Shown here: positions 37,650-47,053 of the stretch, piece after piece
Layout of the letters: each line of letters begins with the position of its first letter
Numbering within the stretch: the stretch's first letter is position 1
NCBI GenBank assembly: GCA_039933635.1
Contig: JBDTNQ010000007.1
Location: forward strand, 11,244 to 75,243
Source of the DNA: Acidobacteriota bacterium
Lineage (GTDB): Bacteria > Acidobacteriota > Vicinamibacteria > Vicinamibacterales > SCN-69-37
Reading direction: 5' to 3'
Length of the DNA: 64,000 nucleotides
Notes under the pieces: generated by a model
Database searches by the model: none
What the model was told of the DNA's origin: nothing
What the model saw: the letters and a program-made list of their open reading frames with translations, nothing else
Translations under genes and position numbers: made by a program

Positions 37650-38315
37650 TTACGCCTTGGGCCTGGGCCGGCGCACGCGTTTGGTCGCGGCGTCGCCCCC
37701 GGCCACCGAGCGAAACGTCAGCACCGTGTGCCCGAGCCGGAGGCGAGCCCCGTCCACGAGCGTCGTTGGGCCCACGGCTCGCCGCCCGCCCACGAAGGTG
37801 CCGTTCGTGCTGGCGAGGTCCTCAATCTGCGCGAGCCGCTCGCCGGCCGTCACCGTGATTCGCGCGTGCCGGCGCGACACGTCGTCCGAGTCGATCCGCA
37901 CGCCACACGCCGCATCGCGCCCGACTACGCTTTCGCCAATCGGCAATGCAATCGCCTTGTCGTGCCAGAGCAACAGGTACGGGCTGCGCGCCGGCCCGCT
38001 CCGCTCGATCGGGTCGTCCACAGGCGCAATATCGAGCGCGTAGCCAACACCGTGAACGGTCCGGACGAGCCGATCCGGCAGCCCGGCCAGCGCCGTCCGA
38101 ATCTCGTTCACGAGATTGCTCAGACTCGACTCGACGACGTGCACACCGGGCCAGAGGCGCTGACGCAGCGTGGCCTTGTCGACGACGGCCGGGTGACGCT
38201 CGACGAGCAGCACCAGAAGGTCGAACGCTTTGAGCGAGAGATGGACCTCCGCCTCATCGATCGTCAACCGCCGGGCCTTCGTGTCGAGCCTCAACGTCCC
38301 CCATCGCACCTTCAC
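37650..38315 (-). CDS. OmpR/CadC-type winged-helix + FHA transcriptional regulator
   Basis: HLSLKAFDLL…LW…SL…IR.AL…RTVHGVGY wHTH; VGRD…VSRRHA…DLASTNGT FHA; GTG at 38315 with GAGG. Confidence 0.88.
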   Translation of the reverse strand: MKVRWGTLRLDTKARRLTIDEAEVHLSLKAFDLLVLLVERHPAVVDKATLRQRLWPGVHVVESSLSNLVNEIRTALAGLPDRLVRTVHGVGYALDIAPVDDPIERSGPARSPYLLLWHDKAIALPIGESVVGRDAACGVRIDSDDVSRRHARITVTAGERLAQIEDLASTNGTFVGGRRAVGPTTLVDGARLRLGHTVLTFRSVAGGDAATKRVRRPRPKA

Positions 38316-38329
38316 GCTGTACCTCGACG

Positions 38330-38362
38330 CTGACAAAAACCTGTGAACTTTCTGGATTTCCG
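38330..38362. promoter_or_regulatory. Three 11-bp-periodic direct repeats in the divergent promoter
   Basis: CTGACAAAAAC / CTGTGAACTTT / CTGGATTTCCG starting at 38330, 38341 and 38352. Confidence 0.45.
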
Positions 38363-45900: not shown

Positions 45901-46217
45901 CGCCGCCGCCGCCGAAGCGACTCGTGCCTGAGGCGTCGGCCCGGATTCTGTCGGGTTATATGAGGGACGTGGTCACGGACGGCACTGGCCGGCTTCTCAA
46001 GTCGAACGCCGTCCGCATAGCCGGCAAGACGGGCACGGCCGAAGTCGACCACGCGCGTTCGCACGCGTGGTTCATCGGCTTCGCGCCCGCTGGACCGGCG
46101 GCGAAACGGATCGCCTTTGCCGTCATTCTCGAGAACGCGGGATACGGGGGCAACACGGCGGCCGCGGTCGCTGGCCAGGTCGTCACGTCGGCCGCGACGT
46201 TGGGATTGGTGCGATGA
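42906..46217 (+). CDS. SEDS (FtsW/RodA/SpoVE) glycosyltransferase fused to a class B PBP (PbpA-like) transpeptidase
   Basis: QPVELIR, DLGPA, PAGHTD and PFISYGGS SEDS motifs; RGTILDR; PGSTFK (SxxK), SCN (SxN) and KTGT. Confidence 0.92.
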   Translation: MGVTYTRASERARPVGRRVSGLPHPALLVTSAISLVALVLAYAGRSRALDVAAAPTTTAPAVVNLSRGPSAQELEPAMAAVFENVADRRLAANQLSAALGRGGELQDIANVGAIARISVPADTIRRTRGLSLLATRLRDAEARATESDTPIRVPLFTALDVSTLKPDLIVRTRAEYRRVVLLCIVGLAAGVPLVGFLWWLTGRKGDPLLLASAHLLITLGGLVMLARPDPLRDTVLLVRFTWSVLAGSVACAALSQVRMRTAAWLQLPYLSLASAVTLSLLLFLFGSGPGTSGAKVNLGPMQPVELIRLLFALFLAGYLGRRWELLRQTRETEWRSRTLPRWIDLPRFDLLAPVLGAVTIALVLFFALRDLGPALLLALLFMTMFAVARAGVGAVVAGVAILGSGFAAGYWLGISSTLTSRVAMWRSPWENGTRGGDQIAQALWALAAGAFQGSGLGLGDTRYLPAGHTDLVLAAVGEELGFVGLVVVALAGVVIAVRGLRIARSAPTDTTCFLALALAISLVVPMLVMGAGILGLIPLTGVVTPFISYGGSAMLANFAALGLLSATASDAGAATDTKPFATSMTWLGGALGACALAIVIVAGRTQLAVADEVLVRPQLGRQADGGVRYQYNPRVLDAADSLPRGTILDRRDVRMAGPPETIRQSATQLATIGVPRDAMCADSTHRCYPLGGVAFHVLGNAETRTNWAASNSSYIERDAGDRLRGFDDHAAIVPVNTDGNGGSALRRDYRDLVPLVRHRWEPDDASVRALRSRTRDVHLTVDAHLQMKVASILAQAAAVDQVTKAAAVVLDANTGEILASVSYPWPAADGSRIDGSDDALLDRARYGLYPPGSTFKLITAAAALGLDQGLGQLAFTCSRLGDDRVGARIPGWSRPIRDDVLDHEPHGTLTMHDAIVRSCNAYFAQLAVRLGVEPLARTAGLAGIIFPTSGPAARLRENLPYSGYGQGDVLASPLRMARVAAALGTDGMIREPSLLLGEAPPPPKRLVPEASARILSGYMRDVVTDGTGRLLKSNAVRIAGKTGTAEVDHARSHAWFIGFAPAGPAAKRIAFAVILENAGYGGNTAAAVAGQVVTSAATLGLVR

Positions 46218-47053
46218 CACACAAACTGCGGGAATGGATGGGACACGCGAAGCGGCTGGAGTCGGCAATCAGCCGCCGGGTGGACGCGGCCACACAGCGA
46301 CTCGCCAGCACATCGGCACGCCAGCCGCTCGAGATCATTCACCAGATCGTTTCCATCGTGGAACGGGAGATTCAGCCGGCCGGACGTGGCCAACGCCTCT
46401 TTCCGTACACGCATATTCGTGTGTGGCTGATGGCGCCAACGCCGAAGGCCAGAGCCCAATTCGAGGCCGCGTGCGACGCGCCGCCCTCGCTGAAGAATCG
46501 GATCCACGAACGGCTGGCGTCAGAGGGCTGCGTCGTCGATCACCTGGCGGTGACGATCACGTACGTGACGAAGCCGCGGGCCGACTGGGCCCAGCCCGAA
46601 TACCACGTGGACTTCTCCCGCGACGTGACGGCGGCGGCACCCGCGCCCGTGCCGCACGCGATCGGTCCCCTCTCGGTCACCGTCACGCGCGGCACGGTCG
46701 AGCGTGCGACGCACACGCTGGCGACGGGCACGCTCACCCTCGGACGCGGGTCCGAGGTCCGCGACGCGCGTGAGCGCGTGTTGCGTGTGAACAACGTGGC
46801 TTTCCTGGACGATGGCAGTGAGGTGAACCTCACGGTGTCGCGACGGCACGCACACATTGCGCGCGACGCGGGCGGGCGCGCCTATCGGCTGCACGACGAC
46901 GGCAGCGAGCACGACACACGAGTGCTCCGCGACGGTCGAGGCGTGCCCGTGCCGCGAGGCCGCGGCCTCCGCTTGCGGAACGGCGACGTCATCGTGCTGG
47001 GCCAGGCACGCCTCGAGGTGACCCTCACCGACGACGGTGGCGGCCCGGTCTAG
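46214..47053 (+). CDS. FHA-domain protein (second, FhaA-like N-domain)
   Basis: LGRG…VSRRHAHI…LRNGDVIVLG; ATGA coupling. Confidence 0.82.
   Translation: MTHKLREWMGHAKRLESAISRRVDAATQRLASTSARQPLEIIHQIVSIVEREIQPAGRGQRLFPYTHIRVWLMAPTPKARAQFEAACDAPPSLKNRIHERLASEGCVVDHLAVTITYVTKPRADWAQPEYHVDFSRDVTAAAPAPVPHAIGPLSVTVTRGTVERATHTLATGTLTLGRGSEVRDARERVLRVNNVAFLDDGSEVNLTVSRRHAHIARDAGGRAYRLHDDGSEHDTRVLRDGRGVPVPRGRGLRLRNGDVIVLGQARLEVTLTDDGGGPV

Follow-up and report, generated by a model that had tools for sequence, protein, structure and literature searches.

How the SEDS-class B penicillin-binding protein (bPBP) synthases are turned on and off is among the central unanswered questions of cell-wall research, and in Gram-negative bacteria the control of SEDS enzymes is usually studied via MreB/MreC or FtsN-type activators, not phosphorylation. 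The locus described here raises the question of whether Ser/Thr phosphorylation gates a SEDS enzyme. It lies in a 64,000-nucleotide stretch of DNA from an Acidobacteriota bacterium (Vicinamibacterales, SCN-69-37; assembly GCA_039933635.1, contig JBDTNQ010000007.1, positions 11,244 to 75,243 of the forward strand), and this whole stretch is referred to as the window. The original prediction, made from the sequence alone, had described six overlapping, coupled genes and a divergent regulator combining a winged helix-turn-helix (wHTH) with an FHA domain, and all seven were indeed found where it had placed them, at window positions 37650-47053 (Table 1). The six plus-strand genes are translationally coupled, with start/stop overlaps of 4 nt (GTGA) between FhaA1 and the microprotein, 1 nt (TGATG) between the microprotein and PP2C, 4 nt (ATGA) between PP2C and the kinase, 10 nt between the kinase and the fusion, and 4 nt (ATGA) between the fusion and FhaA2. 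Within the operon, 5 terminator-like sites were found versus 3.7 expected, which is no excess. As argued below, the operon probably encodes an accessory peptidoglycan synthase, in which a single polypeptide uniting a SEDS polymerase and a class B transpeptidase would be under reversible control by Ser/Thr phosphorylation. An accessory, phospho-regulated, fused synthase module was also the core of the original prediction, and as a reading of the sequence it is well supported by the anatomy of the locus and the comparative data.

Table 1. Features of the locus in window coordinates (TM, transmembrane; aa, amino acids; ORF, open reading frame)
Feature	Position	Strand	Basis
wHTH-FHA regulator, 221 aa	37650..38315	-	Pfam; start from 8-locus alignment and translation
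Divergent intergenic region, 94 nt	38316..38409	.	8-locus alignment; repeat search
FhaA1, 284 aa: FhaA_N, linker, FHA	38410..39264	+	Pfam; ATG via orthologue alignment
Microprotein, 31 aa, single-pass membrane, MTLLLWARYVVLLGLSSAAGLLLWLHWKERS	39261..39356	+	Conserved ORF; coupled at both ends
PP2C, 536 aa: cytoplasmic PP2C, one TM helix, predicted periplasmic right-handed beta-helix	39356..40966	+	Pfam; fold matches
Hanks-type Ser/Thr kinase, 650 aa: kinase domain, juxtamembrane DEPPTR repeats, one TM helix, TPR-like periplasmic domain	40963..42915	+	Pfam
SEDS::class B PBP fusion, 1103 aa	42906..46217	+	FTSW_RODA_SPOVE and Transpeptidase
Fusion, cytoplasmic N-terminal tail, aa 1-24, M-G-V-T-Y-T	42906..42977	+	Homologue alignment; low pLDDT
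Fusion, extra N-terminal module: TM helix 25-53, ~120-aa periplasmic helical domain 54-172, TM helix 173-201	42978..43523	+	
Fusion, SEDS glycosyltransferase domain, aa 207-569, ten TM helices	43524..44612	+	PF01098
Fusion, class B PBP part: TM anchor 578-608, pedestal-like 610-800, transpeptidase 806-1092	44637..46217	+	PF00905
FhaA2, 279 aa: weakly FhaA_N-like N-terminal domain, FHA	46214..47053	+	Pfam

The fusion of a RodA-like SEDS protein to a PBP, as originally proposed, occupies a single ORF at this locus and also in over 100 homologues of ~1100 aa. The SEDS domain was matched by PF01098 (FTSW_RODA_SPOVE) over residues 235-566 (4.9e-48; 164.4 bits versus a cut-off of 26.4, and 167.7 bits in a genome-wide scan), and the transpeptidase by PF00905 over residues 806-1092 (2.2e-37, 129.3 bits). 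Among 46 wider homologues, the SEDS residues D470 (H-T-D), E478, and P303 are invariant and E305 (Q-P-x-E) is at least 90% conserved; D470 and E305 correspond to catalytic-site residues of RodA. The transpeptidase motifs S853-x-x-K856, S918-x-N920, and K1041-T-G1043 are invariant in both 30 close and the 46 wider homologues. An AlphaFold2 model of the fusion, built from 46 sequences, reached a mean pLDDT of 90.4 and a pTM of 0.86. The Pfam family PBP_dimer (PF03717) matched only below its cut-off (E 0.14), and the pedestal-like region was modelled as a mixed alpha/beta structure. Foldseek placed Klebsiella pneumoniae PBP3 first (8gpw_B, 3.3e-18), together with other class B PBPs such as the transpeptidase of an Eggerthella lenta fusion (4mnr; 1.8e-17, 26% identity), Mycobacterium tuberculosis PbpA (3upp_A), and Thermus thermophilus PBP2 (6pl5_B), while 8p1u_B also matches the PBP part. 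The whole chains of PBP3, PbpA, and PBP2 align to the model at TMt 0.54-0.82. Ahead of the SEDS domain, the extra periplasmic domain folded with a pLDDT of 88.7 when modelled alone, but no Pfam family matched it and Foldseek returned nothing at E up to 0.001. VIA-align placed ComEA first (8dss_B, Z 7.3, rmsd 1.8, 65 aligned residues), with 2duy (Z 6.1), the HhH region of Tex, and GspK also among the best matches; as Z values below 8 are middling and can reflect a common arrangement, we describe the modelled domain only tentatively as ComEA-like. Within the pedestal region, C680 and C687 (aa 680-687, C-x6-C-Y-P; window 44943-44966) are invariant in 30 close homologues, which suggests a periplasmic disulfide.

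Whether this enzyme is additional to the usual wall synthases was examined in the host genome, an assembly of 214 contigs that is 96% complete and rated 1.28% contaminated, and the source names of the homologues agree with its placement in Vicinamibacterales, Acidobacteriota. A genome scan detected three SEDS genes including the fusion. One lies between MurD and MurG, as expected of FtsW, and scores 355.9 bits; the second, a RodA, scores 308-309 bits, is located downstream of a PBP2-type transpeptidase and adjoins RNase G, with MreB ~2 kb along the same contig. Because of these separate MurD-FtsW-MurG and MreB-PBP2-RodA loci, the fusion is not the genome's sole rodA/pbp2, an outcome that the original prediction had named as fatal to itself; by gene content, it is a third, accessory synthase. 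LpxC is likewise present, consistent with a lipopolysaccharide-bearing diderm. A search for sequencing runs listed 4 DNA runs of one rhizosphere study and none of RNA.

The fusion is patchily distributed. A full-length orthologue was found in 9 of the 40 nearest genomes (7/24 from the same family and 2/16 from other families of the order) and in 12 of 400 evenly sampled Acidobacteriota genomes (E up to 1e-60), one of which has two copies. The wider family is large, with 2103 matches among 8000 scored candidates, and the best 120 of these 2103 are all ~1030-1126 aa long with both domains; at E up to 1e-30 it holds 900 representatives of 50%-identity clusters, and it is common in soil metagenome data. 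Wherever the neighbourhood could be compared, the association with signalling genes was frequent: in 20 of 23 loci the fusion has a kinase, PP2C, or FHA gene beside it, and the complete order FhaA1-(microprotein)-PP2C-kinase-fusion-FhaA2 is present in 14 (7/9 relatives, 3/3 metagenome-assembled genomes, and 4/11 loci of the phylum sample), although these loci are kin and the counts are not independent. Thus, the gene order that the original prediction had wanted surveyed is conserved. Among the relatives, 7 of 9 loci have the divergent wHTH-FHA gene ahead of the six-gene order, another is truncated where its contig ends, and in the last (L024) the fusion stands by itself. The three metagenome-assembled genomes among the matches listed (Bryobacteraceae, Thermoanaerobaculia, and one unclassified acidobacterium) all have the six-gene core without wHTH-FHA. 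The 11 loci of the phylum sample comprise 4 canonical arrangements, 1 without FhaA1, 4 rearranged yet retaining kinase, PP2C, or FHA genes, and 2 with the fusion alone. Some of these loci have features of their own. In L021 (G006:C2:131000-150900), the kinase and the fusion are each split over two frames, which is either decay of the module or an assembly error. L109 and L110 are two copies of the module in one 8.8-Mb acidobacterial genome (G302:C1), of which the second has the order PP2C-kinase-FHA-fusion and a fusion N-terminal tail without Thr. In L025, which is from Bryobacteraceae, a 601-aa serine beta-lactamase/PBP-like protein (PF00144, 2.3e-62; 2301-4106, minus strand) is encoded ~1 kb upstream of FhaA1 and on the opposite strand. 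The possibility that L025-L027 have one more conserved gene ahead of FhaA1 was also considered and rejected, since the three ORFs (228-241 aa) are not similar to one another and none has a Pfam match.

The signalling proteins themselves retain the residues needed for their activities. The kinase was matched by Pkinase (PF00069; 2.2e-28, 99.8 bits), and K40, E57, D146, K148, D164-F-G166, and the activation-loop T178 are invariant in 9 orthologues, in agreement with the active kinase that had been anticipated. In the closer relatives, D-E-P-P-T-R-like repeats, two or three in number, are present in its juxtamembrane linker. No Pfam match to PASTA was found in the kinase, and the comparison of its ectodomain (365-625) with TPR gave a feature score of 0.90-0.91, a model TM of 0.40-0.54, and sub-threshold Pfam TPR matches (E 0.015-0.08); the TPR-like ectodomain of the original prediction thus has moderate support from the models. 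The phosphatase matched PP2C_2 (4e-13, 49.8 bits) and PP2C (42.6 bits), and its metal-binding D27, D42, D200, and D240 are invariant in 11 orthologues. The Pfam Beta_helix match of its ectodomain (PF13229, E 0.0029) is below the cut-off; residues 315-520 compared with NosD/Beta_helix clusters gave a feature score of 0.96 and a model TM of 0.71-0.82, with an aligned part sufficient to name the fold, and TM values of 0.93-0.97 were obtained with three acidobacterial PP2C + Beta_helix clusters of 121, 156, and 289 members. By its modelled fold, the ectodomain is therefore a right-handed beta-helix, as originally claimed. FhaA1 matched FHA at 4.8e-11 and FhaA_N just under the cut-off (4.3e-5; 24.4 bits versus 25), and FhaA_N was matched in 11/11 FhaA1 orthologues (best 2.1e-6). 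Its FHA residues G193-R194 and S212-R213-x-H215 are invariant. FhaA2 matched FHA at 1.2e-6 to 1.6e-6 in separate scans; among its orthologues, FHA was matched in 10/10 and FhaA_N in 2/10 (best 0.0047). All three FHA domains of the locus keep G-R and S-R-x-H, with Gly replacing Ser in 2 of 10 FhaA2 orthologues. We also considered whether FhaA1 and FhaA2 are full-length paralogues, but this was rejected as hhalign aligned their FHA parts only. Judging from the conserved motifs, the synthase, the kinase, and the PP2C all look active.

A candidate for a connection between these proteins and the synthase is the short cytoplasmic tail of the fusion. Residues 1-24 have low pLDDT in the model and are therefore likely disordered. 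In an alignment of 29 homologue N-termini, position 4 is Thr in 23 and Ser in 5 (28/29 in total) and position 6 is Thr in 27. The start M-x-[VIL]-T occurs in the signalling-linked fusions of the window, L016-L020, L025, L109, L112, L115, and L116, and L107 begins MTYT. By comparison, no Thr precedes the first helix in 3/3 fusions without signalling neighbours (L024, L113, and L114). As these loci are kin and few in number, we regard it as a lead that the tail is a candidate phospho-acceptor or FHA docking site.

A candidate membrane partner of the synthase is the microprotein. A single-helix ORF of 29-42 aa was found in the FhaA1-PP2C spacer of 11/11 loci of a first set and 4/6 loci of a second, being not found in L107 and L109, for a total of 15/17; its consensus is M-T-x-L-L-W-A-R ... 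W-x-x-x-x-R. Its conservation between FhaA1 and PP2C across loci shows that this ORF did not arise by chance. When the microprotein was modelled in complex with residues 1-620 of the fusion, the score was 0.63 (runs 0.63, 0.64, and 0.60) versus 0.00 for the best of three controls, a mark reached by 58/80 solved complexes and 2/110 mismatched pairs; as the microprotein was modelled from alignments of our own, this calibration holds only roughly. At least 93% of contacts are common to the runs, with a partner pLDDT of at least 73, and the predicted interface comprises the extra N-terminal helix (25-47), SEDS TM1 (208-222), and TM8 (480-501). This prediction supports binding of the microprotein to the fused synthase. 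In Actinobacteria, the ORF at this position encodes FhaB, in which a TM helix comes first and an FHA domain follows. On positional grounds, rather than by homology, the microprotein would occupy the place of FhaB's anchor, minus the FHA part.

The divergent gene adds a possible transcriptional output. Its product matched Trans_reg_C (2e-11), an OmpR-type winged helix, and FHA (4e-15), which are ~35 residues apart, and the canonical FHA residues GR, SRRH, and NGT can be read from the sequence. The start codon is GTG, placed by aligning this region from 8 loci, and a longer ORF reaching 38465 is probably not in use. EmbR of M. tuberculosis is a wHTH-BTAD-FHA regulator controlled by PknH. Like EmbR, the window's regulator joins a winged helix to an FHA domain, so that transcription can follow Ser/Thr phosphorylation, but unlike EmbR it is only 221 aa long and had no Pfam match to BTAD. 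The gene is located divergently beside FhaA1 in 8 loci (L016, L017, L019-L023, and L111), all in the window's order. A block conserved in these 8 loci within the 94-nt spacer consists of a GAAA..N..TTTC element and an ATAGT box, and an imperfect inverted repeat is present at 38325-38345/38372-38392. A scan of the spacer for sigma-70 consensus promoters returned 0 matches. We infer from these elements that the spacer may serve as an operator/promoter.

From the domain composition and conservation observed, a series of steps can be envisaged. A periplasmic cue would be sensed by the membrane kinase via its TPR-like domain, and the kinase would autophosphorylate on activation-loop T178 and the juxtamembrane DEPPTR threonines and phosphorylate the disordered cytoplasmic tail of the synthase (M-x-V-T-Y-T). 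The two FhaA-type proteins would bind the phospho-threonines and either switch or localise the synthase, while the membrane PP2C, whose beta-helix is of a kind often glycan-binding, would reset the system. The microprotein would be a membrane subunit packed on the extra N-terminal helix, SEDS TM1, and TM8. Where the window's gene order is present, the wHTH-FHA protein would make transcription from the promoter region common to both directions respond to phosphorylation, and the module would act beside the housekeeping FtsW/FtsI and MreB-RodA-PBP2 machineries. The locus brings together a polymerase, a cross-linker, a candidate acceptor tail, a kinase, a phosphatase, phosphothreonine readers, and a candidate microprotein subunit in ~9 kb. 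A set of this compactness could be rebuilt in vitro or transferred to a model host, where gating of a SEDS enzyme by Ser/Thr phosphorylation could be addressed directly, and the natural fusion could also aid structural work on the polymerase-transpeptidase interface. A more ambitious version would make the module a closed periplasm-to-cytoplasm feedback loop, with the PP2C beta-helix and the kinase TPR domain both reading glycan or wall state, the phospho-mark on the tail recruiting the FhaA adaptors, and the microprotein completing the enzyme, the whole being a portable repair or remodelling synthase that needs neither MreB nor the divisome; taken in its entirety, we find this version rather doubtful.

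Several observations weigh against phosphorylation control of the fused synthase, or against individual steps of it. L023, L027, L108, L110, and L111 are signalling-linked fusions with deviating or doubtful N-terminal tails, and as the loci are kin, the locus counts are not independent. The fusions of L024, L113, and L114 stand without signalling genes, and the synthase can therefore exist without them. The wHTH-FHA gene is absent at most loci beyond the closest relatives and lies outside the conserved core; the phosphothreonine-reading regulator that had been predicted is thus real, but its attachment is confined to the 8 loci with the window's order. The TPR assignment of the kinase ectodomain is moderate, with a model TM of at most 0.54, and the complex score of the microprotein expresses the confidence of a model rather than binding. 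It should also be noted that 8 Hanks-kinase hits, another PP2C, and 3 FHA domains occur elsewhere in the genome, which leaves room for cross-talk or other targets, and the description of the system as self-contained was not borne out. Two of the other FHA domains share contigs with other Hanks kinases (C36:445-636 with C36:2092-2898, and C28:24145-24336 with C28:690-1499), and thus the organism has further FHA-kinase pairs.

Among the alternatives, the fusion could be a wall synthase of a developmental or resting stage (cyst, spore-like, or stationary phase) in the manner of SpoVE-SpoVD, with the kinase and phosphatase serving as a developmental switch and not as a sensor of damage or growth. 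As a SEDS-bPBP set it is the third in the genome, dispensable, and patchily distributed, which would fit this, as would the regulator attached in some lineages, and the kinase/phosphatase flanking recalls sporulation bPBPs, as far as the available portion of PMC12516126 goes. However, no sporulation or cyst genes adjoin the module, which has a Zn-peptidase on one side and an ECF-type sigma factor on the other, neither of them conserved there, and we consider a developmental role unlikely. It is also conceivable that the genes are merely co-located, the kinase, phosphatase, and FHA proteins acting mainly on precursor synthesis, the flippase, or division proteins, and the synthase being no phospho-target. 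In mycobacteria, the FhaA partners documented in the portion of 10.1101/2024.08.13.607006 available to us are MviN and CwlM rather than RodA/PbpA, and three fusions do live without signalling genes. Yet it is exactly in these three unlinked fusions that the Thr-bearing tail is missing, and the translational coupling is tight across all six genes, which together make mere co-location quite unlikely.

The relationship of the module to the actinobacterial operon fhaA-fhaB-pstP-rodA-pbpA-pknA-pknB, in which FhaA binds phosphorylated PknB substrates (10.1101/2024.08.13.607006, available portion), was examined with maximum-likelihood trees of the SEDS (75 rows) and transpeptidase (83 rows) domains, which are quick, unrooted, and lightly sampled. 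The rows were drawn from 80 contig-scan loci (a sample of at least 80 loci that is biased and not a census), the 9 relatives' loci, the window, and the window genome's two paralogue pairs, leaving out SEDS hits below 230 aa, transpeptidase hits below 250 aa, and hits with a stop. In both trees, the acidobacterial fusions form one clade on a long branch (SH-aLRT 100) that belongs neither to the diderm clade (RodA/FtsW or PBP2), where the paralogues from the window genome fall, nor to the monoderm clade. The fusions of Coriobacteriia are nested among those of Actinobacteria in both trees, and the SEDS-PBP fusion therefore arose at least twice. Among the matches listed, actinobacterial loci have the order FHA-FHA-PP2C-SEDS-TPase-kinase(-kinase), where TPase is the transpeptidase, with separate SEDS and TPase genes; Coriobacteriia loci have the actinobacterial order but a fused ORF; Firmicute loci have SEDS-TPase with no signalling genes nearby; and other diderms have TPase-SEDS. 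In one of the 4 rearranged loci of the phylum sample (L117, G128:C1:4194000-4209500, from an acidobacterial genome), a more distant fusion homologue of 33-36% identity lies in the actinobacterial order PP2C-SEDS-TPase-kinase, and it is possible that this locus links the actinobacterial and acidobacterial layouts.

The likeness to the actinobacterial locus noted in the original prediction holds for the layout and not for the ancestry of the synthase. As in Mycobacterium and Corynebacterium, an FhaA-type protein, a small membrane protein, a PP2C, a SEDS protein, a class B PBP, and a Hanks kinase are encoded together, and the first three genes are collinear. Unlike there, SEDS and PBP are fused here, and a single TPR-like kinase precedes the synthase, whereas pknA and the PASTA-bearing pknB follow separate rodA and pbpA genes. 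The second gene encodes a 31-aa helix without the FHA domain of FhaB, a second FhaA-like gene ends the operon, the PP2C ectodomain is a predicted beta-helix, the synthase has an extra two-helix N-terminal module and is not nested in the actinobacterial RodA/PbpA clade, and the host appears to bear lipopolysaccharide. A recent horizontal copy of an actinobacterial fhaA-pknB cluster that was fused after transfer would explain the collinear first three genes, the FhaB ORFs that start with a TM helix, and FhaA_N in 11/11 FhaA1 orthologues, but with a clade of its own outside the actinobacterial/firmicute clade in both of these quick, unrooted trees, and with a different kinase position, kinase ectodomain, and second FhaA, it is highly improbable. 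Scarcely credible, and rejected here, is the fusion as the housekeeping elongation or division synthase, for which there is nothing more than the intact catalytic motifs, given canonical FtsW and RodA loci (MurD-FtsW-MurG and MreB-PBP2-RodA) that score 356 and 308-309 bits versus 164-168 for the fusion and an orthologue not found in 31 of 40 close relatives.

SEDS-bPBP chimeras beside kinase and phosphatase genes are already known. In the available portion of PMC12516126 (Microlife 2025), 117 InterPro proteins are reported to have both transpeptidase and SEDS domains, and chimeras of Pedobacter ginsengisoli (1341 aa, Gram-negative) and Senegalimassilia faecalis (931 aa) have genes for a Ser/Thr kinase and a phosphatase in their flanks, which is called a phenomenon to be investigated with no function tested. 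Those chimeras resemble the fusion described here in being single glycosyltransferase-transpeptidase polypeptides that coexist with FtsW/FtsI and RodA/MrdA and have kinase/phosphatase neighbours, but they are from other phyla, with two glycosyltransferase domains in Pedobacter and a PBPA_dimer in Coriobacteriales, and the portion of the report available does not mention FHA proteins, a microprotein, an N-terminal tail, or ectodomains for them. A full-text literature search found nothing on this module in Acidobacteriota, though Tables S8 and S11 of PMC12516126 may list acidobacterial entries. The view that the module was uncharacterised in Acidobacteriota therefore stood as far as that search reached, while kinase/phosphatase-flanked chimeras as such had been reported elsewhere. 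What is new here is the Thr-bearing tail, the extra N-terminal module, the predicted synthase-binding microprotein, the apparent beta-helix ectodomain of the phosphatase, and a distinct lineage thinly spread in Acidobacteriota. The Coriobacteriia SEDS-PbpA fusions (L028-L032) likewise encode SEDS ahead of TPase in a single ORF, near FHA, PP2C, and kinase genes, and their solved transpeptidase folds (E. lenta 4mnr, Atopobium parvulum 4r3j, and others) resemble that of the fusion, but they stem from an independent fusion event, have the kinase downstream, measure 919-1060 aa from stop to stop, and are without the N-terminal module. In comparison with the two-protein complexes RodA-PBP2 and FtsW-FtsI (6pl5 and 8p1u), the same two catalytic activities and the SEDS motifs are kept, except that here they are covalently joined, with the PBP anchor helix after SEDS TM10, and have the added N-terminal module and the predicted microprotein subunit on the TM1/TM8 face.

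The surroundings of the module in the window, which has a G+C content of 64-69%, are not shared with its relatives. On the 5' side, a Zn-peptidase gene (36523-37632) is not kept beside the module in relatives. At the other end, an ECF-type sigma factor with a C-terminal DUF6596 (47050-48291, minus strand) is convergent with FhaA2 and overlaps its end by 4 nt, and it too is not kept beside the module in relatives. Elsewhere in the window, there are two very long ORFs, at 29362-32718 (plus strand, 1118 aa) and 53284-56364 (minus strand, 1026 aa).

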